Assembly (NCBI GenBank): GCA_963718935.1
Contig: OY970379.1
Span: forward strand, 2,770,108-2,834,107
Origin: an uncultured Solirubrobacterales bacterium
GTDB taxonomy: Bacteria; Actinomycetota; Thermoleophilia; Solirubrobacterales; Solirubrobacteraceae
Reading direction: 5' to 3'
DNA: 64,000 nucleotides
Of this stretch, positions 3,359 through 64,000 are shown piece after piece. The notes beneath the pieces are model-generated. The model saw only the letters and a list, made by a program, of their open reading frames with translations. It had not been told where the DNA came from and made no database searches. Both the position numbers and the translations under genes were made by a program. The number at the start of each line of letters is the position of its first letter. Within the stretch, counting starts at the first letter, position 1.

Positions 3359-5920
3359 CTATCCCTCCTGAAACCCAGCCCGCGGGGACACCCTAGAGGC
3401 CGAATAGCCCGGTAGCGCAATCACGGCCAGCGCGATTCCGACGAGTAGCAGCAACGTGAACGCCACCTGCAGCCCACCGAAGCCGAAGGGCGCCGGGAAG
3501 CCGGAGCTGATCTGTAGATAGCGATCCGCCAGCGCGTGCGCAAAGACCCCCAGGACCACTCCGTCGACGCAGCCAATTCCGATTACGACGGCGCTCTCCA
3601 GCAGCAAGCTGCGCCACAACTGCCAGTGATCGAATCCCTGTGCCTGCAAGGCGGCCAGGCGGGCTCGTCGTTGATAGATGGCCGTCGACAGGGCGCTGGC
3701 GAGCGCGAGCGCGGCCACGACCAGGAGCAGCGTCGAGATGTCGCCAAGCGTCTTGAGCCCCTGATGCACACTTTGCTCGACTTCGGCGACCCGTTCCGCC
3801 GAGGTCTGAACGCGCAGCCCCGACTGGCCGGCGAGCAGCGTCTTGACGGCTTCCCTGCCCGCGATCGGCGTCACACCGGGCAGGAGGCTCAGCGACAGCG
3901 CGGTCGGAGCGCTCGTCCGCCAGTAGCGGCTGTAGTCGACCGTGTTGAGGATGATCGTCCCCGAAGGCCAGCCCATGTTTGTCGTGATCGCCGCGACCCG
4001 GAAAGGGACGAGTCCCGACGGTGTCGGAAGCATGAACGTGGAGCCCAGGCCAAGGCCGTGTTCCCCGGCGAAGCCGCTGGAGACAGTCGCCCATCCTCCC
4101 GCGCGCAGCCGCGCGTTGGCCTCGGCGAGATCGCCTTCGTGCAGTTGGCTTGAAAGCACCATCGAACGAGCGCTGCGGGGAACGGCGAGGATCCAGAGGC
4201 GATGGGTTCCGAGATCGACGAAGCCCCCTTGGTGGACTTGAACAGCACCGATGACCCCGCCGCCCGCCTTCAGCGCCCCCGGACGCTGCAGCCTGAAGCT
4301 ATCGGCGTCGAAGATATTGCCGTCGGGCGTCACCCACACTGGCGCCGAGCCCCACTCCTGAGCAATCGCCTCGTCCAATCCACGCAGCAAATCGTGGCGG
4401 GCGCCGCCCACGGAGACAGATCCGAAGACCGCCAGCGCGGCCACGCTGGCGAGCGCGATCGAACGCGTTGCGATCGCATCCATTTCGATTGCGGTCACGG
4501 CGAGCATCCCTCCGTGGTGCCGGCGAGCGACGTGTCGCAGAAGACTCGAGGCGGCTCTGAACAGAAGCGGGATCAGACAGACCGCGGCGAGCGCGAGCAG
4601 CACGCCGCCGAGGAGAGCAAGCGAGGCGTCGAAGGCAACCCCGACGCCAACGAGCGCGACCAGCGCCAGCCCGAGGGCGGCCAGTCCCAGCGCGGTGCGA
4701 CGGGTGATCGCTTGGCCCGGCTCCCCGTGCTCCTGCAGTACCGCATCGACCGGTCGCGCCGACCGTAGATCGAAGACGGGCGCCAACGAGACGAGCAGTG
4801 CCGCGGCGAGGCCACAGCCGAACGCCACGACGACGGTGCTCAGGTGCACGGTTTGGCTGGCGGTCACCGGGAACACGGTCGTCAGAAAGGTCGGCGTCTG
4901 ATGAAACAGGGTGCGCGCCAGCAGCTCGCCCGCGAAGATGCCGACGCAAGAGGCGAACGCACCGAGCACCAACGCCTGAAAGACAGCGATGCTGAGCACC
5001 TGACCGGTGTCAAAGCCCTGCACCCGCATGTCGGCGATCGCCCGCCGCCGCTCGGGCACGGTCAGCAGCATCGCGTTGAGGGCAAGCAGGAACCCGACCA
5101 TCGCGGCGATTGCCACGAACAGCGAGGTCGACTGGTCTACGGGCTTGGCGGCTGTCTCGGCGAGGGCCAGTTCTCGGTCCGCTGGCTCGACGTCGAGTGT
5201 CTGACCGGCGATGGAGCGCAGCTCGCTCTGAACCTGACGATAGGCGCCGGGCGCCGGCTCGACGAGGACCTCGCTGATCTGACCGCTCGCCCCAGAGATC
5301 CGCTGGGCATAGGGCAGCAGCGTCACCACGATCGTCGCGGAGGCGAGCGGTCCGATCGCGTCGGAGCTCAGCACGGCGCGCACGTCCACGGTATGGGCCA
5401 CACCGTCGACCACCAACGTCGTCGCCTGCCCCGCTTCAGCCCCGATCGCGGTCGCGAGGCTCTCCGGAACGCCCACCCCGTGCACCAGCAGCAACCCTTC
5501 GGCGCCCAGCCCCTTGGTGACCGTCCCACCGAGCGTGGTCAGGCCCGCACCGGCGCCGATGAACTGCACACGCTCACGCCGCGAGGGGCCCTCGATCACG
5601 GCGCTCTGGCGCAGCAGCGGGGCTGACGCGCGTACGCCCGGCAACGCGGCGATGCGCTCCGCAATCCGATGACTGAACGTGCTGGGCGAGCGCGCCACCA
5701 CCTGCAGGTCAGCCGAGCCGCCGAGTGCGTGAATATCGGCGTTCACCGAGCTGACGATGCTGCCGTTGGCGACGAGCACCCCAAACACGAGCGCTACGCC
5801 AACGGCGATGCCGGCGCCTGCCAGCAACTCTGTGACCGCGTGGTCGCGCAGGCGCCGTATATAGAGGCCGCACAGCACACTCAGACGAACACCGAAGACG
5901 AGTGGGTTCAGGCGCCTCAT
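3359..5920 (-). CDS. FtsX/MacB-family ABC permease with duplicated architecture
   Basis: 853 aa; two TM bundles with 'V.ERRR.IA.MRVQG' and 'IYQRRARLAALQAQG' FtsX-type motifs, two large extracytoplasmic loops; TGATG overlap with the upstream ATPase. Confidence 0.9.
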   Translation of the reverse strand: MRRLNPLVFGVRLSVLCGLYIRRLRDHAVTELLAGAGIAVGVALVFGVLVANGSIVSSVNADIHALGGSADLQVVARSPSTFSHRIAERIAALPGVRASAPLLRQSAVIEGPSRRERVQFIGAGAGLTTLGGTVTKGLGAEGLLLVHGVGVPESLATAIGAEAGQATTLVVDGVAHTVDVRAVLSSDAIGPLASATIVVTLLPYAQRISGASGQISEVLVEPAPGAYRQVQSELRSIAGQTLDVEPADRELALAETAAKPVDQSTSLFVAIAAMVGFLLALNAMLLTVPERRRAIADMRVQGFDTGQVLSIAVFQALVLGAFASCVGIFAGELLARTLFHQTPTFLTTVFPVTASQTVHLSTVVVAFGCGLAAALLVSLAPVFDLRSARPVDAVLQEHGEPGQAITRRTALGLAALGLALVALVGVGVAFDASLALLGGVLLALAAVCLIPLLFRAASSLLRHVARRHHGGMLAVTAIEMDAIATRSIALASVAALAVFGSVSVGGARHDLLRGLDEAIAQEWGSAPVWVTPDGNIFDADSFRLQRPGALKAGGGVIGAVQVHQGGFVDLGTHRLWILAVPRSARSMVLSSQLHEGDLAEANARLRAGGWATVSSGFAGEHGLGLGSTFMLPTPSGLVPFRVAAITTNMGWPSGTIILNTVDYSRYWRTSAPTALSLSLLPGVTPIAGREAVKTLLAGQSGLRVQTSAERVAEVEQSVHQGLKTLGDISTLLLVVAALALASALSTAIYQRRARLAALQAQGFDHWQLWRSLLLESAVVIGIGCVDGVVLGVFAHALADRYLQISSGFPAPFGFGGLQVAFTLLLLVGIALAVIALPGYSASRVSPRAGFQEG

Positions 5921-7965: not shown

Positions 7966-8119
7966 GAACGTTAGTTACCCACTCGTTACGATCCTACAAA
8001 TCGGAATATGACGATGAACGCTCTCTTTGACAAGGGTCGTTTCTGACTACGCCCGATACGCCCGCCCCCACAAGGGCTGACTCCCAAGACGCATCCGGTC
8101 GTGTTGGCCTGTGCCCGCG

Positions 8120-55967: not shown

Positions 55968-56531
55968 TCAGATGATCAGCTTCTGGACCGTCTTGAACTC
56001 CGGGGCGCCAGCGCCTTCGAGCAGCTCGAACAAAGCGGACTCGACCGTCGAGACGACGGCGCCGGCGCGCTGCAGGCGCTCGAGGCCGCGCTCGTAGTCG
56101 AGCTCGTGGCGCGAGCCGACGGCGTCGGCGGGGACGTGCACTTCGACGCCTTTGTTGAGCAGGTCGTGGACGGTCTGGCTGACGCAGACGTGGGTCTCGA
56201 TCCCGCAGACAATCGCCTGGCCGCGGCCTTCAAGGTCAAAGCCGTCGGCTCTGGCGGCCGAGAAGACGGTCTTCTCTATCAAGCGCTCGGCCGGGGCGTC
56301 GGTCTGGGGCTCGCCACCATGCGCGGGCTCGGCCAAGCCGACCTCGGGCGCGGTATGGCCGAGCCCTTTGGGGTACTGCTCAGAGACGAGGATCGGCAGG
56401 CCGAGGATGCGGGCGGCCTGGACCAGCTTGTTGGCGGCGGCGGCGACCGACGCGAAAGAGGCGTAGGGGCGGAAACCCTCTTGAATGTCCACGACGATGA
56501 GCGCCGCCCGGTCGCGTTCGAGCAGGCCCAT
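55968..56531 (-). CDS. Isochorismatase/cysteine hydrolase family protein (YcaC/ISOC-like)
   Basis: VVDIQE, SEQYPKGLG.T, EKT.FSA, GIETHVCV.QT, ADAVGSR; D-K-C triad; TGATG-coupled to pyrC. Confidence 0.9.
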   Translation of the reverse strand: MGLLERDRAALIVVDIQEGFRPYASFASVAAAANKLVQAARILGLPILVSEQYPKGLGHTAPEVGLAEPAHGGEPQTDAPAERLIEKTVFSAARADGFDLEGRGQAIVCGIETHVCVSQTVHDLLNKGVEVHVPADAVGSRHELDYERGLERLQRAGAVVSTVESALFELLEGAGAPEFKTVQKLII

Positions 56532-57874
56532 CAGGCGGCCACCACCGAGAAGACACGCTCACGGTAGGCGATCACGCCGGCGGCGACGGTCAACAGGACG
56601 CGACCACGCAGGCGGCGCCCGGCGAAGCAGCAGTTCTCGGAGCGGCTCTCCCAGCCGCGCTCGCCGGCTAGATACTCGGCGTCGAGGTCGATCAGGGTGA
56701 GGTTGGCGGGCTCGGAGAGGGCGATCGTGGGGATCGGCAGGTCAAAGAGGGCGGCGCCGGCGGTCATTCGCTCGACGAGGACGCCGAGGTCGAGCTCACC
56801 GGTCAGGACGAGGCCTGTGTACAGCGCGGCGAAGGCGGTCTCCAGGCCGGTGGTCCCGAAGGGTGCCTGCTCGAAGGGGACTTCCTTCTCCTCGCGCGCG
56901 TGGGGTGCGTGGTCGGTGGCGACGCAGTCGATCGTGCCATCGCGGAGACCCGCGATCAGGGCCAGCCGATCGTCGTCGCCCGCGAGTGGCGGGTTCATCT
57001 TCATGCGGGTGTCAAGCGTTCGGACCGAATCGTCGGTGAGCAGGAGGTGGTGCGGCGTGACCTCGCCGCTGACCTTGACGCCGGCGGCCTTGGCGGAGGC
57101 GAGCGCGCGCACGGAGGCGGCGCAGCTGAGGTGCTGGAAATGGACGCGGGCGTTCTCGAAGGCGGCGAGTTCGGCGTCGCGGGCGACCATCGTGGACTCG
57201 CTGACAGACGGAACGCCGGCGATGCCGAGCGCGGCGCTGACGGCGCCCTCGCGCATCGACGCGCCGCGGGAGAGCGTGGGGTCCTCCTCGTGCAGGACGA
57301 TGATTCCGCCGCAGAGCCGCTGGTATTGGAGGGCCTTGCGCAGAGTGCCGGCGCTCGCGACGGGCATGCCGTCGTCGGTGAAGCCGATGGCGCCTTCCGA
57401 GCGCAGGGTGGCCATCTCGGTCAGCTCCTGGCCGGCGAGGTCGCGAGTGATGGCGGCCAGGAACCCGACGGGGACGCGCGCATCGCGGGCGGCGGCGTCG
57501 CGCACGGAACGCAGGAGCGGCGGGGAGTCGATCGGCGGGTCGGTGTTGGGCATCGCGATGACCGCGCCGTAACCACCGGCGGCGGCGGCGCGGGTGCCGG
57601 TCTCGATGTCCTCCTTGTGCTCCTGACCGGGAGTGCGCAGGTGTACGTGGGGATCGAAGAAGGCGGGCATCAGCGCGCGGCCGCGGCCCTCGACGGTCTC
57701 AGCGCCATCGGCTGGCGCGATCGTGTCGGCGTCGGCGATCTCCGCGATGAGGCCGTCGCGGACGAGGACGTCACGGCGCGCGTCCAGCCCGGTGCGGGGA
57801 TCGAGCGCGTGGACGTCTTTCAGCAGCAGCTCGGCGGGCGCTCCGGGTCCTTTGACGAGCGGCTCGAATCCCAT
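56531..57874 (-). CDS. pyrC: Dihydroorotase (type I)
   Basis: DPHVHLRTPG.E.KE.I.TG..AAAAGG, MPNT.P, TDDG, HEED, QHLS, EVTPHHL, KMNPPL, TDHAPH, PFG.TGLET. Confidence 0.96.
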   Translation of the reverse strand: MGFEPLVKGPGAPAELLLKDVHALDPRTGLDARRDVLVRDGLIAEIADADTIAPADGAETVEGRGRALMPAFFDPHVHLRTPGQEHKEDIETGTRAAAAGGYGAVIAMPNTDPPIDSPPLLRSVRDAAARDARVPVGFLAAITRDLAGQELTEMATLRSEGAIGFTDDGMPVASAGTLRKALQYQRLCGGIIVLHEEDPTLSRGASMREGAVSAALGIAGVPSVSESTMVARDAELAAFENARVHFQHLSCAASVRALASAKAAGVKVSGEVTPHHLLLTDDSVRTLDTRMKMNPPLAGDDDRLALIAGLRDGTIDCVATDHAPHAREEKEVPFEQAPFGTTGLETAFAALYTGLVLTGELDLGVLVERMTAGAALFDLPIPTIALSEPANLTLIDLDAEYLAGERGWESRSENCCFAGRRLRGRVLLTVAAGVIAYRERVFSVVAA

Positions 57875-58848
57875 TACGCCAATTGGGGCTCGGGTACGGG
57901 GCGGGGAGCGTGGGCGCCGGCCGGACCGGGAGACCCTCCCTCCGGTCGCATCCCCGAACCGGCGAGCAGCTCGTAGAGGACGGCCATGCGCACGACGACG
58001 CCGGCCTCGACCTGGGCGGTGATCAGGGCCTGCGGCGAGTCGACGACCTCGCCGGAAAGCTCGACGCCGCGATTGACGGGGCCGGGGTGCATCAGGAGCT
58101 GGCGAGCGGACAGGCGCCGGCCGTTGATCTGATAGCGGCTTGCGTACTCGCGCAGGGAGGGCACCAAAGCCTCGGTCTGGCGCTCGTGTTGCATGCGCAG
58201 CGCGTAGACGACGTCGGCGCGAGCCAGCTCGTCAAGGGAGTAGCGGACGTCGCAGCCGAGCGTCTCGATCTCGCGCGGGATCAGGGTGGGCGGCCCGGCG
58301 ACGGTGACGTGGGCGCCGAGGCGCTGGAAGGCGATGATGTTCGAGCGGGCGACCCGCGAGTGGGCGACGTCGCCGACGATCCAGATCTCGGCGCCGTCGA
58401 TCGAGCCGAGGCGCCGGTGCAGGGTGTAGACGTCGAGCAGGGCCTGGGTCGGGTGCTCGTGCTTGCCGTCGCCGGCGTTGACGATCGCGGCAGGGCACCA
58501 GCGCGAGACCAGCTCGGCGGCACCGGCCCAAGGTGTGCGCAGGACGATCGCGTCGGGCTTGTGGGCGCTGAGCGTCTGGACTGTGTCCTTCAGGGACTCG
58601 CCCTTCTCGACGGAAGAGCCGCTGGACGCGAAGTTGACGACGTCCGCGGACAGGCGCTTTGCGGCCAGCTCGAAGGAGCTGCGCGTGCGCGTGGAGGCCT
58701 CGTAGAAGAGGTTCAGGACCATCAGGCCGCGCAGAGCCGGCACCTTCTTGATCTCCCGATCGGAGACCTCCGCGAAACGGAAGGCCTGGGCGACGATCTT
58801 CTCGATCGCGGGCCGGTCGAGTTCCTCGATCGAGAGCAGGTGATTCAT
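57874..58848 (-). CDS. pyrB: Aspartate carbamoyltransferase catalytic subunit
   Basis: LFYEASTRTRSSF, SS..KGESL.DT, NAGDG.HEHPTQALLD, GD..HSRVARSN, LRMQ.ER, MHPGP.NRG.E. Confidence 0.97.
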   Translation of the reverse strand: MNHLLSIEELDRPAIEKIVAQAFRFAEVSDREIKKVPALRGLMVLNLFYEASTRTRSSFELAAKRLSADVVNFASSGSSVEKGESLKDTVQTLSAHKPDAIVLRTPWAGAAELVSRWCPAAIVNAGDGKHEHPTQALLDVYTLHRRLGSIDGAEIWIVGDVAHSRVARSNIIAFQRLGAHVTVAGPPTLIPREIETLGCDVRYSLDELARADVVYALRMQHERQTEALVPSLREYASRYQINGRRLSARQLLMHPGPVNRGVELSGEVVDSPQALITAQVEAGVVVRMAVLYELLAGSGMRPEGGSPGPAGAHAPRPVPEPQLA

Positions 58849-59420
58849 GGAGTGAGGGCTTTCTCGGGAACGACAGAGGCGATCGTGACCTCATCGACGC
58901 TGTCAAGCTCGCAAACACGCACACGGACATGCTCGGCGCGGGAGGTCGGCAGGTTCTTGCCGACGTAGTCGGGCCTGATCGGCAGCTCGCGGTGACCGCG
59001 ATCGACGAGCACCGCGAGCTGGACCTTCGCGGGGCGCCCGTAGTCGAACAGGGCCTCGATCGCGGCCCTGACGGTGCGCCCGGTATAGAGGACGTCGTCG
59101 ACGATGACGACGGTCAGGCCGGTGACGTCGAAGTCGATGTGGGAGGCATGCACGACCGGCGCGGCGGGCCTGCGGAGGACGTCGTCGCGGTAGAAGCCGA
59201 TGTCGAGGTCGCCGAGCGGGACCTCGCGGCCGAGCAGATCCTGGAGGATGTCGCGCAGGCGCCGCGCCAGGTGGGCGCCGCGGCGGTGGATGCCGACGAG
59301 CGCGAGACCGGACGGATCGTCTGCGCTTTGAGGGTTGCGCTCGACGATCTCGTGGGCGATACGGGTCAGGGCCCGCCGCAGGTCGTCCTCGCCGAGGACC
59401 GTCTTCTCGGTGTCGTGCAC
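58845..59420 (-). CDS. pyrR: PyrR regulator / uracil phosphoribosyltransferase
   Basis: RAL.RIAHEI.E, GI..RG, LDI..YRDD, VVIVDDVLYTGRT.RAA..AL...GRP, L.DRGHRELPIR.DYVGKN.PT. Confidence 0.97.
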   Translation of the reverse strand: MHDTEKTVLGEDDLRRALTRIAHEIVERNPQSADDPSGLALVGIHRRGAHLARRLRDILQDLLGREVPLGDLDIGFYRDDVLRRPAAPVVHASHIDFDVTGLTVVIVDDVLYTGRTVRAAIEALFDYGRPAKVQLAVLVDRGHRELPIRPDYVGKNLPTSRAEHVRVRVCELDSVDEVTIASVVPEKALTP

Positions 59421-59429
59421 TTTTGGGGT

Positions 59430-59465
59430 CTTCCTTCCTGGCCTCTCGGGACCTGGTTAAAGGAG
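59430..59465 (-). promoter_or_regulatory. PyrR RNA binding site overlapping the pyrR ribosome-binding region
   Basis: Minus strand CCUUUAA-CC-AGGUCCCGAGAGGCC-AGGAAGG resembles the PyrR consensus (CUUUAA...RUCCnGnGAGGy); the 3' arm is the SD-like GGAAGG, as in translational repression in mycobacteria. -10 candidate TACAGT at 59474-59479. Confidence 0.8.
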
Positions 59466-59479
59466 CTGCTTCGACTGTA

Positions 59480-60451
59480 TCAGCCGGCGGGGACCGGCTC
59501 GGGCGGAGGAGCCTCGCGGGCGCGACGCTCAGACCAGCGCACCAGCTTCGGTAGGCCGCGCTCGGGAAACGGGATCTCGATCGTGTCGTAGTCGCGAGGA
59601 GCCTCAGTCTGGACGAACACTTGGCGCGCCTCATCACTGAGCTCGCCTCCGGGATAGCGGCTGGAGATGTGGGTCAGCGCCAGCATCCGGACATCGGCCT
59701 CGCGCGCGACTTCAGCCGCCTGGCGGGCGGTGCTGTGGCAGGTGAGACGCGCCCGGTCGGCATTGTCCTCGACGAACGTCGACTCGTGTACGAGCACGTC
59801 CGCTTCGTGGGCGGCGACGATCAGGGACTCGCAAGGCGCGGTGTCCCCGGAGATGACGATCTTGCGACCGGGCCGCTCCGGTCCGAGGACCTGGTCGGGG
59901 CGTACAGCGCCTACGCTCTCGCCGCGCTGCAGGCGCCCGAAGTCCGGACCGGGCTGGACGCCGAGCGAGACGGCGAGGTCCGGGTCTAGGTGGCCCGGCC
60001 GGGGATCCTCGATCAGGGCATAGCCGTAGGCCTCCCCTTTGTGCCTGACCGGGATCGTGGCGACCACGTAGCCGTCACCCTGGACCGACTCGGCCGGGGC
60101 CAGCTCGACGACATTCAACTCGTAGGGCAGCCTGCCGTAGATGAAGCGCGTCTGCTCCATCAGGCTGGTCAAGCCCCGCGGGCCGTACACGCTGAGCGGC
60201 TGGGTCCGCTCGCGCAAGCCAAACGACTTGAGCATCCCGGGCAGTCCCAACCAGTGGTCGGCATGAAAGTGGGTGATCCAGACCGAGTCGAGGTCGAGCA
60301 GACCGACCGACTTGATCAGCTGGCGCTGGGTCCCCTCGCCGCAGTCGATCAAGATCGTCTCCCCGCCCCGCCTGATCAGGATCGCGGGCAGGCCACGACG
60401 GGCGCTCGGAACCGAGCCGCCGGTGCCCGCGAAGAACAGGGACATGTCCAT
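59480..60451 (-). CDS. rnz: Ribonuclease Z
   Basis: F.GT.GSVPS.RR, LIDCGEGTQRQ, ITHFHADH..GLPG, exosite G..PGP..G.L..G, SGDT.PC, HESTF, HST, LTHIS.RY. Confidence 0.95.
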   Translation of the reverse strand: MDMSLFFAGTGGSVPSARRGLPAILIRRGGETILIDCGEGTQRQLIKSVGLLDLDSVWITHFHADHWLGLPGMLKSFGLRERTQPLSVYGPRGLTSLMEQTRFIYGRLPYELNVVELAPAESVQGDGYVVATIPVRHKGEAYGYALIEDPRPGHLDPDLAVSLGVQPGPDFGRLQRGESVGAVRPDQVLGPERPGRKIVISGDTAPCESLIVAAHEADVLVHESTFVEDNADRARLTCHSTARQAAEVAREADVRMLALTHISSRYPGGELSDEARQVFVQTEAPRDYDTIEIPFPERGLPKLVRWSERRAREAPPPEPVPAG

Positions 60452-60454
60452 GGT

Positions 60455-60469
60455 CCGCTACGGTAGCGG
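60455..60469. promoter_or_regulatory. Palindrome CCGCTAC-G-GTAGCGG carrying -10-like hexamers on both strands (TACGGT +, TACCGT -)
   Basis: Occupies the 28-nt gap between divergent rnz and tRNA. Confidence 0.55.
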
Positions 60470-60479
60470 CACCGCGCCA

Positions 60480-60552
<73 letters not shown>

Positions 60553-60571
60553 TAGCGAAGGAGGACCTGCG

Positions 60572-61522
60572 GTGCGAGATGGCGTAAGAGAGTTCGAGCT
60601 GATAGTCCGGACCATGCGCACCGAGCGTCTCGCGGGTGAGGTCGCCAATGCTCTTGAAGATGCCGGTATCGCGACGATCCTGCTCAAGGGCTCCGTTCTC
60701 GGCCAGTGGCTTTACCCAGGCCAGGTGCGTGTCTACGGCGACGCAGACCTTCTGGTAAGTCCCGCCTCCTGGGAGCGGTCTCTGATCGTTCTCGACTCGC
60801 TTGGTTTCGAGAAACATCCCCGATCGACCGAACGCACACAGTTCGGGCCCACCCATGCAAGGACTCTCATGCGTGACGGCCTCTGCGTCGACTTGCATCG
60901 TGCGCTTCCCGGCCTCAGGGGTGACAGCGAAATGATCTGGCAGTCGCTGCTGGCTCGCGCCAGGTGGCAAGACATCGCCGGTGTCGAGGTCCGTGTGCCC
61001 GACCGTGCGCTCCTCTTGCTGCACGTCGCGCTGCACGCGGCACAGCACGCACGGGAGCCGATTTCGAAGACCTTCGAGGATCTGAGACGGGCGATCGCGA
61101 TCGCGTCAGAAGACCAGTGGCGACGCGCGCTCGAGCTGGCCTATATGTATGAAGGCGTTGCGGGATTCGCCAGCGGTTTGCGGATGCTGCCAGAGGGAGA
61201 GCAGCTCTTGAACAACCTGGACGTCGAAGTACTGCCCTCGCTTCAGCACGAGCTTCGCCGTCACAGCGATCCGATCGTCGAGGAGATTGGCGGTCTGCTC
61301 TGGGCGCCAGGCAACCTGAGATCCAAGATCACCACCATGATGGGAATGCTCTTTCCGAGCCCCGAGTACATGCGCGATTGGTCGACTCTCGCTAAGCGCG
61401 GCAAGCGCGGGCTCGCCGCCTCTTACGTTTGGCGCTTGCTCTGGGCTATCGGTCATACCCCGCGGGCCGCCCTCGCAGCTTGTCGTGTGCATCGCCAGAC
61501 CACGGGAAAATGGTCAGTTTGA
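60572..61522 (+). CDS. Nucleotidyltransferase-family protein (NTP_transf_5-like, the type found in RiPP-associated clusters)
   Basis: L..AGI..ILLKG..L...LYP...R.YGDADLLV (KG...DxD), VDLH, LLLH.ALHA.H, DL; SD GGAGGA then GTG 60572. Confidence 0.85.
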   Translation: MRDGVREFELIVRTMRTERLAGEVANALEDAGIATILLKGSVLGQWLYPGQVRVYGDADLLVSPASWERSLIVLDSLGFEKHPRSTERTQFGPTHARTLMRDGLCVDLHRALPGLRGDSEMIWQSLLARARWQDIAGVEVRVPDRALLLLHVALHAAQHAREPISKTFEDLRRAIAIASEDQWRRALELAYMYEGVAGFASGLRMLPEGEQLLNNLDVEVLPSLQHELRRHSDPIVEEIGGLLWAPGNLRSKITTMMGMLFPSPEYMRDWSTLAKRGKRGLAASYVWRLLWAIGHTPRAALAACRVHRQTTGKWSV

Positions 61523-62530
61523 CATCAGCATGTGCCGTCCTTGATTCCGTGAATGCCGCGTCTCGTCCTGAAGCGCAAGACGTATGAGCGATTCGATCGC
61601 AGCGCGGCCGGCGACGGGCGCGCTGCGCACCGTGCCGTCCGATGCGAGGAGGATGGCGGAGGGGGTTGCGTTGATTCCGTATGCGTGCATGACGGTTGCT
61701 TGCTCGTCGACGAGCACGTCAGTCAGGGCGTGCTCACGCGCGAGCGCCTCGGCTTGCGTGGCCTCCACCGGGGCTACCAAGGTGAGGGCTAGGCGTTCGG
61801 TTACGGTGTCATGCCAACGCGCGAGTTCAGGCAGGAGCGTCGCGCAGGGTCCGCATCCGGGGCTTACGAATGTGAGTAGGCAGGCCCGGTCATCGGCCAG
61901 GAGGTCCTGAAGGCTGACGACGGGTCCCGCCGCGGATGGCAGAGAGAACTGTGGCGCCAGCGCTCCGATTTGCCGGGGCGCGGTGACCGCTCGGCCGTCG
62001 GTCGAGCGTAGCCGGCGGTTCTCGCGCCACAGAAGCACAGATGTCGTTGTCGCGAGAGTTGCCAGTGAGGCGGTCGCGATCAGCCAGAGGTCAGTCGCGT
62101 TGGTGTCGGCCGCCCATGAGGTAAGCGAGGGACCCGGGCCCGCGAGCGCCACGTATGCGGCCGGCAGTGCCAGCACGAGATTGCGGGCGACCGTCATCCA
62201 GCTTGCGGGCTCGGAGTGCAACTGGCCGAAGCAGTGGCAATCCGGGGCTTCACCGCGGCGCAGCACTCGTGTGAGCCCCGCGACGAACAGCGCGAGGAGA
62301 ACCAGGCCGCCCACGGCCCCCCAGCGAGCCGTAGTCGGAAACAACAGCGCCGTCGCCACCACGAGCTCGGCCGCGGGCAAGAGCAGCACCAGCGGATCGG
62401 CAAGGCGGTCCGGCACATCGAAATCCGCCAGTGCCTGCCGCGTACCCGAGCGGTCGACGAGCTTTGCTACCCCCGCGACGATGAACACCGCGGCAAGAAA
62501 GAGCCGAACTATCACCAGCGCGTCGTTCAT
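61514..62530 (-). CDS. MauE/DoxX membrane domain fused to a thioredoxin-like (MauD/TlpA) domain
   Basis: R..LAAVF..AG.AKL.D, ELVVA..LL, RG...DCHCFG, ARN..L; then G..AP.F.L, FVSPGCGPC, Y.I..TPSA.L...DG; start ATG 62530 preferred. Confidence 0.9.
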   Translation of the reverse strand: MNDALVIVRLFLAAVFIVAGVAKLVDRSGTRQALADFDVPDRLADPLVLLLPAAELVVATALLFPTTARWGAVGGLVLLALFVAGLTRVLRRGEAPDCHCFGQLHSEPASWMTVARNLVLALPAAYVALAGPGPSLTSWAADTNATDLWLIATASLATLATTTSVLLWRENRRLRSTDGRAVTAPRQIGALAPQFSLPSAAGPVVSLQDLLADDRACLLTFVSPGCGPCATLLPELARWHDTVTERLALTLVAPVEATQAEALAREHALTDVLVDEQATVMHAYGINATPSAILLASDGTVRSAPVAGRAAIESLIRLALQDETRHSRNQGRHMLMSN

Positions 62531-62550
62531 GATCCAAATGTACAACAGCT

Positions 62551-63357
62551 ATGGTCCCCTGTGTGGCAGGTGAAAGCGCAGAGACGGTGGCAGTCGAGGC
62601 GTTTGGTGTGACCGTAGCGGTCACCGCCGATTCTCAGCACTTCGCGGCTGTTTCCGATTTCCTGCCTCCGCGCGCCCGTCCGGCGAGCCACCCGCCTGAG
62701 CATGGCCGCTTCGCGCTCGTCAAGGACACAGATGACGCGCTTATGAGCGTCGTGTGCGACGAACAGCCGATCGCGGGCCCGTTTGACCTGCGACTGGCGC
62801 TCGGCATCCTTGACGCCGAGCTGCGCATGTACATCGCGCTGCATGCTCCCGACCATATTTTCGTCCACGCTGGAGTTGTTGGAGTAGGAGAGCACGCGAT
62901 CGTGCTTCCGGGCAGGAGCTTCGCCGGAAAGACCACCCTCGTGGCCGCGCTCGTGCAAGCGGGCGCGGAATACTGGTCTGACGAGTACGCCGTGCTCGAC
63001 GCCGACGGCCTCGTTCACCCCTACCCCAAGCCTTTGTCGGTGCGCATCAACGACACCCGCGAGACCGACGAGCAGCCTGTCGAGAGCCTCGGCGGACGAG
63101 CCGGCGATCGACCCCTGCCCATCGCTGTGATCGCGTTCACGAACTACAGCCCCGGAGTCACATTTGCGCTCCGCCCCTGCACCACCGGAGAAGGTGCCGT
63201 CAAACTGCTGGAGCACTCGGTCGCCGCGCGCTCGCGCCCGGAACAGGTACTCGCAGCTGTGCGGCGCGCCGCGACCGACGCCCTGGTTCTCGAGGGAGAC
63301 CGCGGAGACGCCGACGAAGCCGCCAGCGCGCTGTTGTCACCGCAGCCTGCGAGTTGA
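62551..63357 (+). CDS. HPr-kinase-like P-loop kinase
   Basis: FVHAGVV....AIVLPGRSFAGKTTLVAALV..G..Y.SDEYAVL..DG.V.PYP.PL: HAG + Walker A + SDE pattern of HPrK-related kinases. Confidence 0.85.
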   Translation: MVPCVAGESAETVAVEAFGVTVAVTADSQHFAAVSDFLPPRARPASHPPEHGRFALVKDTDDALMSVVCDEQPIAGPFDLRLALGILDAELRMYIALHAPDHIFVHAGVVGVGEHAIVLPGRSFAGKTTLVAALVQAGAEYWSDEYAVLDADGLVHPYPKPLSVRINDTRETDEQPVESLGGRAGDRPLPIAVIAFTNYSPGVTFALRPCTTGEGAVKLLEHSVAARSRPEQVLAAVRRAATDALVLEGDRGDADEAASALLSPQPAS

Positions 63358-63471
63358 CAAAGCGCGTCAGGTCGACGCACGCGCCCGCTCACAGCGAGAT
63401 CGCGGACACCGGCTAATTGGGGGCCGCCCATCACGGGATGTCCGACTAGGGACCGTTGTCGTCGTCGCCCG

Positions 63472-63644
63472 TTATGCCCGGCTCTCGGGCGCCACCATCA
63501 GATCAGAGTCAGTAGGTACGCACATCCCGGGATAGAGCCACTTGGCGAGCAGGCCTTGAGCACAAGCACCTCGATTCCCTCAATTTGATCGAACGCACCC
63601 GCGACCTCGGCCCTGAACGCATCGACCGCGAATTTACGCGCCAG
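63472..63644 (-). pseudogene. Frameshifted remnant of a second nucleotidyltransferase
   Basis: Minus strand: ARKFAVDAFRAEVAGAFDQIEGIEVLVLK, then in another frame LLAKWLYPG..DSDLMVAPE (a third frame gives DVRTY); parallels EVANALEDAGIATILLKGSVLGQWLYPGQVRVYGDADLLVSP of 60572-61522; flanked by in-frame stops. Confidence 0.75.
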
Positions 63645-63723
63645 TTAGGAATAACGCTCAAGAATCATGTTCATCACAGATAAGAGACACTCGCCCCACC
63701 TTGCGATCCGCACGCGGCGGCCG

Positions 63724-64000
63724 CTACACAGCCATCATTCCCGCCGTTTCTTTGAACACACCTTTACGCGTACTACCAGCGCATGTCGTTGTGCAAGTAA
63801 AGCCTGTGCTCTGGGTGACCGCTTCACCATTTTCGCAGCAACAGCAGACTGCATCTGCGCTAACACAGCGATTTTCGGTCTTACAGTTGATGTTTTCGCC
63901 CGAGCTGGCCATAGCTGGCGTTGCGGCGACTGCGGAGACGACTAGCGGCGCGGCGGCGGCGGCGGCACCGTAACGCCCGACCCGGACGATCGCTTCCCGG
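63724..64000 (-). CDS. Cys-rich exported peptide / RiPP-like precursor, 5' end beyond the window
   Basis: Frame open to the window edge: REAIVRVGRYGAAAAAAPLVVSAVAATPAMA-SSGENINCKTENRCVSADAVCCCCENGEAVTQSTGFTCTTTCAGSTRKGVFKETAGMMAV*; 8 Cys. Confidence 0.75.
   Translation of the reverse strand, partial: REAIVRVGRYGAAAAAAPLVVSAVAATPAMASSGENINCKTENRCVSADAVCCCCENGEAVTQSTGFTCTTTCAGSTRKGVFKETAGMMAV

Follow-up and report, generated by a model that had tools for sequence, protein, structure and literature searches.

What do the accessory genes that follow a tRNA gene at the end of this stretch of DNA from a soil actinobacterium (Solirubrobacterales) make, and do they belong together? The window, by which we mean the whole 64,000-nucleotide stretch that was analyzed, carries there an NTP_transf_5 nucleotidyltransferase (NTase; 60614-61522, plus strand; PF14907, E 1.7e-21), a MauE domain fused to an AhpC/thioredoxin domain (MauE-Trx; 61514-62545, minus strand; PF07291, E 1.2e-30; PF00578, E 2e-11; TIGR02661 MauD, E 3e-10), a P-loop kinase with a predicted HprK/PEPCK fold (62551-63357, plus strand; TIGR04352 HprK_rel_A, E 3.8e-18, below the cutoff), the relic of a second NTase (approximately 63475-63659, minus strand) and a Cys-rich frame on the minus strand. 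An earlier note on this DNA had listed the NTase, the MauE-thioredoxin fusion, the HPrK-like kinase and the Cys-rich frame after the tRNA, and Pfam, NCBIfam, ARAGORN and translation located each where the note had put it; the decayed second NTase, which the note had also listed, was recovered by tblastn with the NTase of locus L002 and contains a stop codon and a frameshift. The note had interpreted these genes as the lasso-peptide and methylamine dehydrogenase (mau) toolkits merged on one peptide. We arrived at a different reading: judged from sequence comparison, the system is best seen as a variant of the uncharacterized HPr-rel-A cassette, a catalogued trio of kinase, NTase and PqqD domain, in which PqqD has been fused to the exported substrate and a MauE-Trx gene has been added. 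The cassette is real and conserved, apparently undescribed, and resembles pathways for peptides that are ribosomally synthesized and then post-translationally modified (RiPPs). Its domain architecture, conservation pattern, enzyme folds and motifs, and gene linkage are established; its chemistry, cleavage, export route and role are proposals. We lean, by a little, towards a dedicated maturation and export cassette for hypervariable, disulfide-rich secreted peptides of ribosomal origin, a RiPP-like relative of HPr-rel-A that works by the mechanism proposed below.

The Cys-rich frame ends at 63724 and runs off the end of the window; past an AMA↓SS site (the arrow marks the putative cleavage point), it contains 8 Cys exactly. 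The sequence past 64000 was read from the relatives L001 and L012, which are syntenic with the window at 92-93% DNA identity, and not from the source contig. In both relatives, the frame is the C-terminus of a 185-195-aa protein, and the gene is present as two tandem copies. On this comparison, the window frame is the tail of a precursor of approximately 190 aa, whose RiPP recognition element (RRE) domain and start codon are predicted to lie past 64000. The window retains the end of the leader, REAIVRVGRYGAAAAAAPLVVSAVAATPAMA, with its twin-arginine signal-like segment (63907-64000, minus strand), and the hypervariable core, SSGENINCKTENRCVSADAVCCCCENGEAVTQSTGFTCTTTCAGSTRKGVFKETAGMMAV, of 60 aa and 8 Cys (63724-63906, minus strand; stop codon 63724-63726), both assigned by translation and, for the leader, by alignment A1 of full-length homologues. 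That is, the exported 8-Cys peptide with a signal-like leader that had been proposed kept its 8 Cys and its AMA↓SS site, but instead of a short peptide headed by a signal it is a fusion of RRE, internal twin-arginine translocation (Tat)-like signal and core. The PqqD/RRE domain that had been sought beyond the window is present in the relatives as the N-terminal domain of the precursor itself.

Precursors of this family are 185-200 aa long and their cores 55-70 aa. In alignment A1, residues 1-128 are near-invariant, and the sequence becomes hypervariable after ATPAMA↓SS; the median pairwise identity is 81% among leaders and 30% among cores, against a shuffled baseline of 21.5%. Cores contain 10 Cys in 90/115 cases and 8 in 17/115. 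Among distant representatives, the Cys count is even in 110/137 and odd in 23/137; the median tail is 68 aa long and the median Cys count is 10. The core of the window shows the pattern C-C-CCCC-C-C, is homologous to the core of P0181 and, as had been noted, has no Trp that could form a tryptophan tryptophylquinone (TTQ) cofactor. Ser stands at position +2 past the cleavage site in at least 90% of the Solirubrobacterales clade, and Ser or Thr in 83/137 of the distant members. A Pfam search assigned neither the window core nor six Cys-rich cores to a family; matches of cores to HPE1_fam_CxxC of NCBIfam (E 0.01-0.04, below the cutoff) were rejected as noise from Cys composition.

A word-indexed search found 639 homologues of the precursor, all of them unnamed or labeled "hypothetical protein". 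The precursor profile matched 5,744 clusters at 50% identity, 2,855 of them with E <= 1e-10, and in the distant profile-matched members the layout of RRE, RR signal and Cys-rich part is preserved. Because sequences in the distant-family alignment, A3, had diverged too far to allow a pattern scan of metagenomes, the sub-clade alignment A4 was used in its place. We considered that the Cys-rich frame might be a spurious open reading frame (ORF) and rejected this reading. The number of homologues, the homology of the core to that of P0181 and the repeated co-occurrence with partner genes put the precursor and its cassette, as predicted genes, far beyond chance.

Comparison of the window with L012 is informative about how cores change. 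The flanks are 92.8% identical at the DNA level and the 93 nt that encode the leader are 98.9% identical, whereas the core together with the NTase relic (63435-63906) has no detectable DNA similarity to the corresponding part of L012 (10975-11404); the core is also unmatched in L001. The comparison suggests an exchange of cores while the leader in front of them stays constant, and it looks like replacement of cassettes by recombination at the leader. Such swapping points to antagonism or signaling under diversifying selection.

A few members of the family carry other tails. P0228, P0234, P0241, P0243 and P0245 combine the same near-invariant leader with a tail of approximately 100 aa that has few Cys and weak Ig-like matches, and in the P0379 type, from another clade, the leader is followed by Cys repeats of the Dicty_CTDC family (PF00526, E 9e-29). 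It may thus serve as a general module for cargo. A clade of approximately 0.55 GC content (L080, L101, L104, L108, L112, L114, L115 and L121) has two to three tandem precursors with an RRE and an RR signal near locus position 8000; their tails are 25-35 aa long with knottin-like C-C-CC-C-C spacing, and they lie in a conserved housekeeping neighborhood in which the 8 kb around them contain neither a kinase nor an NTase or MauE-Trx gene.

We next consider the N-terminal domain of the precursor, for which we used an AlphaFold2 (AF2) model. The model is a beta-beta-beta-alpha-alpha-alpha fold with a predicted local distance difference test (pLDDT) score of 80-92. Its best Foldseek matches in the Protein Data Bank (PDB) were TbiB1 with leader peptide (5v1u/5v1v, E 4e-4), LynD (4v1v) and the lasso B1 protein (6jx3), followed by further RRE-containing proteins (TigE, ThcOx, CteB, MccB and SuiB). 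PF05402 (PqqD) matches the relatives of the window weakly (E 5e-4) and is on record for many distant members. On these models, the domain is a PqqD-type RRE.

The middle segment that joins this domain to the core contains SRREAIGR (SRREAIxR), an Ala/Gly/Ser-rich stretch and ATPAMA↓SS. Alignment A1 and alignment A3, the latter with a mean column identity of 25%, show an RR pair that is invariant or almost so, and 141/150 representatives have [ST]RR ahead of a hydrophobic stretch. The segment thus has the Tat features [ST]-R-R-x-hydrophobic-hydrophobic, a weakly hydrophobic h-region and an AxA site. It is Tat-like in sequence, and we infer that it directs Tat export. Work on the loop mechanism in thylakoids reportedly found that domains lying N-terminal to Tat signals remain cis to the membrane; therefore, an RRE placed ahead of a Tat signal is not an implausible architecture.

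To describe the distribution of the cassette, loci were scanned with one genome per species, giving 47 loci, all from Solirubrobacterales. All three partners lay within 10 kb of the precursor in 31/47 loci (tblastn), in the usual order Pre(+) NTase(+) Kinase(-) MauE-Trx(+). Precursors occur in tandem, up to four per locus; orphan precursors, with no partner within 10 kb, account for 11/47 loci, mostly in genomes that have a complete cassette at another locus. These four genes also lie side by side on the megaplasmid of Gemmatirosa kalamazoonensis (Gemmatimonadota) and occur in several metagenome clades (L055-L071). The co-occurrence of the gene set that the earlier note had proposed to look for is thus widespread, and the cassette is near-universal in this bacterial family and not a one-off island. 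A plasmid search with a distant precursor returned no match.

Several loci show incomplete or rearranged versions. L039 (2829-14869) contains duplicated cassettes with broken kinase pieces, and L034 (10681-10986) and L048 (10705-10827) hold only fragments of NTase and MauE-Trx beside an intact precursor; these loci point to frequent decay and rearrangement of the cassette. In L054 (7001-14827), a distant precursor lies beside two NTase and two kinase-like genes in a polysaccharide-like region rich in glycosyltransferase and Asn-synthase genes, without MauE-Trx. On a Methylobacterium tardum plasmid (NZ_CP097485, 9323-9733), a region similar to residues 104-221 of the kinase falls under a gene annotated as a PqqD family peptide modification chaperone, and this gene may be a PqqD-kinase fusion.

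Each enzyme of the cassette was then assessed. The kinase matched no Pfam family, and sequence searches of the kinase and the NTase against the PDB returned nothing useful; therefore, the kinase fold was taken from its AF2 model (pLDDT 77) and Foldseek, which matched it to PEPCK and HprK/P structures (1kkm, 1kkl, 2qmh, 1knx, 1ko7 and 1jb1; E 3e-5 to 1e-3). Its core is 43% identical to Sphingomonas HprK-related kinase A (hhalign 98.3%, E 2e-14), its P-loop PGRSFAGKTT and WSDEY motif are invariant, and homologues 80-92% identical to it are found in many Solirubrobacteraceae metagenome-assembled genomes. As modeled, the kinase has the HprK/PEPCK fold and is related to HprK-related kinase A.

The NTase of the window is 95% identical to the copy in L012 and shares approximately 48% identity with the canonical NTase of the cassette. 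Its motifs LKG, R.Y.D.DL.V (with D-x-D) and VDLH show at least 95% conservation among 40 homologues of both paralogue types. The relic consists of residues 7-41 and 43-69 of the canonical NTase in two frames (combined E 2e-09), with approximately 65 N-terminal codons left, and occupies the canonical NTase slot in the order Pre-NTase-Kinase-MauETrx. The intact NTase at 60614-61522 is a paralogue that has replaced the decayed canonical copy. The window and L012 share this variant, in which the canonical NTase is decayed and the 48%-identical paralogue lies at the opposite end. An alternative start of the NTase ORF at 60494 was rejected as spurious, as it overlaps the tRNA.

MauE-Trx, which starts at TTG 62545 or ATG 62530, has a MauE/DoxX membrane domain with five predicted transmembrane (TM) helices. 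It scores 106.9 bits with PF07291 (cutoff 27), and its MauE domain has a weak match to HvfX. The motifs PDCHCFGQ (CxC) and CGPC (CxxC) show at least 95% conservation among 36 homologues. Counted over 27 homologues, loops 1-2 and 3-4 together with the part past TM5 contain 266 Lys and Arg residues and the rest contains 29; the protein from Gemmatirosa has a like pattern. This lead suggests a predicted topology in which the CxC loop and the thioredoxin domain face the cytoplasm. By this positive-inside analysis, the thioredoxin domain would lie on the cytoplasmic face, unlike the periplasmic arrangement of MauD.

From these components, we propose the following mechanism. The RRE, acting in cis, would dock the kinase and the NTase, two cytoplasmic enzymes without an RRE of their own. 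The HprK-fold kinase would phosphorylate Ser or Thr, the best candidate being the conserved Ser/Thr at +2 past the cleavage site, and the NTP_transf_5 enzyme may extend that phosphate, as in pseudomycoidin. MauE-Trx would handle the four to five disulfides of the core, possibly before export, on the cytoplasmic face; given the charge-bias topology of MauE-Trx, such handling would fit export of a folded peptide by Tat. Tat would then export the already folded core by the loop mechanism while the RRE stays inside, and signal peptidase would cut at AMA↓SS and release the peptide. For orphan and tandem precursors at other places in these genomes, the enzymes would act in trans.

Several observations weigh against this proposal. 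With regard to modification, the C-terminal Ser that is the target of the lasso kinase is not conserved across precursors, whose C-terminal residues vary. The kinase scores 65.6 bits with TIGR04352 against a cutoff of 200, over the catalytic core (residues 68-165) only, and the N-terminal domain of a full-length homologue scores 13.4 bits with TIGR04353 (E 0.12, cutoff 35). With regard to export, the Tat model TIGR01409 gives 10.2 bits against a cutoff of 16.7, and the signal-like motif is preceded by a folded domain and begins at about residue 96, an unusual position for a Tat signal. With regard to disulfide handling, the MauE-Trx topology is a crude one, obtained from a hydropathy analysis and positive-inside count of our own and from no validated predictor; the CxxC of the Gemmatirosa protein is CAHC, and CGPC is the classic reducing thioredoxin motif, so that the redox direction is ambiguous. 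Some distant clades have the kinase, the precursor and the NTase without MauE-Trx despite their Cys-rich cores, and for many arrays of distant precursors a search of the surrounding 8 kb gave none of the three partner genes. The tails of approximately 100 aa with few Cys would suit a module that exports cargo in general better than a pathway that modifies peptides. Finally, a search of sequencing runs found the region in no RNA run, and 5% of its words in two soil DNA runs only.

The best-surviving alternative, which we nevertheless regard as unlikely, keeps the same cassette and changes the route: the signal would be of the Sec type or a signal-anchor, the core would be translocated unfolded, and an outward-facing MauE-Trx, built like a VKOR-Trx fusion or a DsbB/DsbA pair, would oxidize or isomerize it outside. 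In its redox core of four TM helices, its fifth TM helix and its thioredoxin domain, MauE-Trx resembles bacterial VKOR-Trx fusions, and the ResA- and MauD-type redoxins matched by its thioredoxin domain are normally extracytoplasmic. The subthreshold Tat score fits this route, as do the Cys-rich clades that lack MauE-Trx, in which general periplasmic oxidases may suffice. However, the charge bias in the 27 homologues, and likewise in Gemmatirosa, puts both the CxC loop and the thioredoxin domain inside, RR is kept invariant or nearly so in a family as diverged as alignment A3, and an Ala/Gly/Ser-rich h-region is typical of Tat and not of Sec signals or anchors.

A further alternative concerns the target of the enzymes. 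The kinase and the NTase could act on the leader and RRE or on each other, as a checkpoint for export or processing (an in-cis analogue of Tat proofreading) or in immunity or regulation, and the product would be an unmodified disulfide-rich bacteriocin or effector. What makes this attractive is that the RRE and signal are conserved while the cores offer almost nothing in common for an enzyme to recognize, that one leader type precedes unrelated cargo (the Ig-like tails and Dicty_CTDC repeats described above), and that arrays of distant precursors lack adjacent enzymes; the HPr-rel-A cassette of Sphingomonas likewise adjoins a protein with a Tat-type signal. We nonetheless hold it to be improbable. 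Where relatives of the two enzymes have been characterized, they act on the side chains of peptides (PMC8498205), RREs are known to present peptides to modifying enzymes, and nothing in the mature end is conserved except the Ser/Thr at +2.

It is very improbable that the ~190-aa protein is a membrane-tethered winged helix-turn-helix (wHTH) regulator or anti-sigma-like sensor, with a variable Cys-rich sensor domain outside the cytoplasm and unrelated redox and signaling genes as its neighbors. The N-terminal domain does have weak, subthreshold matches to GntR, MarR, ArsR and HTH_47, and a single hydrophobic segment lies between the two halves of the protein. In Foldseek, however, the domain aligns with RRE domains over approximately 83 residues, including the three-stranded sheet, with E down to 4e-4, and with DNA-binding wHTH structures over approximately 44 residues with E > 0.4. 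An invariant AxA site, hypervariability and tandem and orphan copies are ill-fitting for such a sensor, and the gene is tightly linked to the enzyme pair of the PqqD-dependent HPr-rel-A system. That the kinase and NTase tailor a lasso cluster just outside the window, or that the MauE/MauD fusion belongs to a mau cluster, is scarcely credible, even if these enzyme families were first characterized in those settings: the 10 kb past the window in the syntenic contigs contain two precursor genes and an RES/Xre pair and no cyclase, protease or ABC exporter, no extra family occurs in more than 8/47 loci, mauA, mauB and mauG are absent, the window core has no Trp, and the TIGR02661 MauD score is 39.8 bits against a cutoff of 188.6.

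ORF clustering over the 47 loci gave no other flanking gene family in more than 8/47, and no lasso cyclase, protease or transporter recurred; among the called genes within 10 kb in L001-L003, there was no Asn-synthetase-like cyclase, transglutaminase-like protease or ABC exporter. The earlier note's observation that no lasso cyclase or B2 protease is visible therefore extends beyond the window, and the counter-finding it had named, a lasso cyclase with a canonical lasso precursor just outside, did not appear in the syntenic contigs to 10 kb past the window end. In these contigs, an RES toxin/Xre-family antitoxin pair lies just past the two precursor genes (L001 12623-13641 and L012 8691-9709), and such a pair probably also lies just past the end of the window.

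On the other side, the cassette is bordered by tRNA-Arg(CCG) (60480-60552, plus strand; ARAGORN), which is probably outside it. The GC content (window 60250-64000) is approximately 0.70 upstream of this tRNA and 0.58-0.66 downstream through the cassette, and in other genomes the cassette lies among transposases and toxin-antitoxin genes. Because of the drop in GC and these neighbors, the cassette may be mobile or prone to recombination, though it is near-universal in the bacterial family. Before the tRNA, translations of 56531-60451 give dihydroorotase-like, aspartate carbamoyltransferase-like, PyrR-like and RNase Z-like metallo-beta-lactamase genes, and the Pfam labels on the syntenic contig agree; by these assignments, the region is ordinary housekeeping that includes a pyrimidine operon. 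No further copies of the cassette genes were found in the remainder of the window (1-56000). The kinase and MauE-Trx start back to back (window 62530-62563), 5-20 nt apart, and a divergent gap of 20-45 nt between them is kept in almost all related loci; starts this close would imply leaderless transcripts or promoters inside the neighboring gene. A scan for promoters and terminators gave matches at chance level only.

If the proposal is correct, it provides a first concrete substrate and a testable role for the unstudied HPr-rel-A cassette. It would apparently also be the first time that a precursor is seen to contain an RRE of its own, and that a Tat-type signal is seen on a RiPP-like precursor. 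It would also offer a natural system in which to compare cytoplasmic with extracytoplasmic disulfide formation and to study Tat quality control. The large family, with diverse Cys-dense cores of which some are knottin-spaced, offers stable peptide scaffolds in large numbers, as yet unexploited, from soil bacteria that have not been cultured. The broadest form of the claim is a new class of ribosomal product together with a new use of Tat, in which thousands of hypervariable knottin-like peptides of soil Actinomycetota, Gemmatimonadota and other phyla would be presented by a cis RRE, phosphorylated and perhaps glycosylated or nucleotidylated, oxidatively folded on the cytoplasmic face by an inward-facing MauE-Trx, exported by Tat and cut free by signal peptidase; we put this forward tentatively and at present doubt it.

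Finally, we compared the cassette with known systems. Two features expected of RiPPs are present, namely a conserved leader with a variable core and a PqqD-like RRE fold in the pathway. Characterized relatives of the enzymes tailor lasso peptides: for pseudomycoidin, a homologue of HPr kinase phosphorylates the C-terminal Ser of the precursor and an NTase adds hexose to the phosphate (PMC8498205). In the phosphorylated and phosphoglycosylated lasso peptides paeninodin (kinase) and pseudomycoidin (kinase and NTase), as here, such enzymes are set beside a ribosomal precursor in an RRE (PqqD/B1) context (PMC8498205). However, lasso clusters encode a cyclase and a B2 protease, neither of which is found here; the lasso precursor is approximately 40-60 aa with a core of approximately 15-25 aa, whereas here they are 185-200 aa and 55-70 aa, with four to five putative disulfides; and lasso peptides leave through an ABC transporter, whereas this precursor has a built-in signal.

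With regard to disulfides, a DoxX and thioredoxin pair in class I lasso clusters is assigned to their formation, for example HumE/HumF of humidimycin (PMC7168211). There, as here, membrane and thioredoxin-fold proteins are encoded with a Cys-containing ribosomal peptide. HumE and HumF are separate and serve 4 Cys, whereas MauE-Trx is one fused polypeptide, accompanies 8-12 Cys and has a predicted cytoplasmic orientation.

In the mau system, MauE and a MauD-like redoxin are linked to the small Cys-rich subunit of methylamine dehydrogenase, which is exported by a long twin-arginine leader. The MauE membrane domain is common to both systems, as is a Cys-rich exported protein with a twin-arginine leader. 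They differ in that no mauA, mauB or mauG occurs in any neighborhood here, the core has no Trp for a TTQ cofactor, and the substrate is hypervariable.

Signal peptides are rare in RiPPs; bufferins were the first with a Sec signal, and their precursors are long and Cys-containing (PMC11626156). In these MNIO RiPPs, a general export signal replaces a dedicated transporter and a DoxX-family gene is often in the cluster (PMC11626156), which is the likeness to our cassette. Bufferins have an N-terminal Sec signal, an MNIO enzyme with a DUF2063 partner and a thiooxazole, whereas here the signal is internal and Tat-like, with a cis RRE in front of it, and a kinase and an NTase take the place of those enzymes. 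Knottins are likewise small, Cys-dense and hypervariable, as the cores are here; the 25-35-aa tails of distant members (e.g. L088, L101 and L121) show the knottin C-C-CC-C-C, known by spacing and not by connectivity (I-IV, II-V and III-VI in knottins), and the window core differs, with 8 Cys as C-C-CCCC-C-C.

A literature search found no paper on the HPr-rel-A system, TIGR04352, TIGR04353 or HprK-related kinase A, nothing relevant on MauE with PqqD or on PF14907, and, in the library searched, no paper that pairs PqqD with a Tat signal. That the system was undescribed, as first suggested, stands in the sense that the search found no description of it, but the trio of kinase, NTase and PqqD had already been catalogued, uncharacterized, by NCBIfam. 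HPr-rel-A (TIGR04352, TIGR04353 and PF14907), defined by comparative genomics only, likewise links a PqqD-like domain, an HprK-related kinase and an NTP_transf_5 enzyme. The Sphingomonas cassette NTase also belongs to PF14907 (E 1e-46), and the match of our RRE to Sphingomonas PqqD is weak (hhalign, 59% probability, E 9e-5). On a Sphingomonas parapaucimobilis plasmid (NZ_CP155749, locus L052), the HPr-rel-A cassette comes directly after a 161-aa hypothetical protein (5017-5502) with the twin-arginine signal TSRRMLMLGAVGASTVIAVRPALAQ, and the unfused HPr-rel-A system may also act on a Tat substrate. In HPr-rel-A, PqqD stands alone, whereas in the cassette of the window the PqqD domain is fused ahead of the exported substrate, and a MauE-thioredoxin gene and a hypervariable Cys-rich substrate tail are added.

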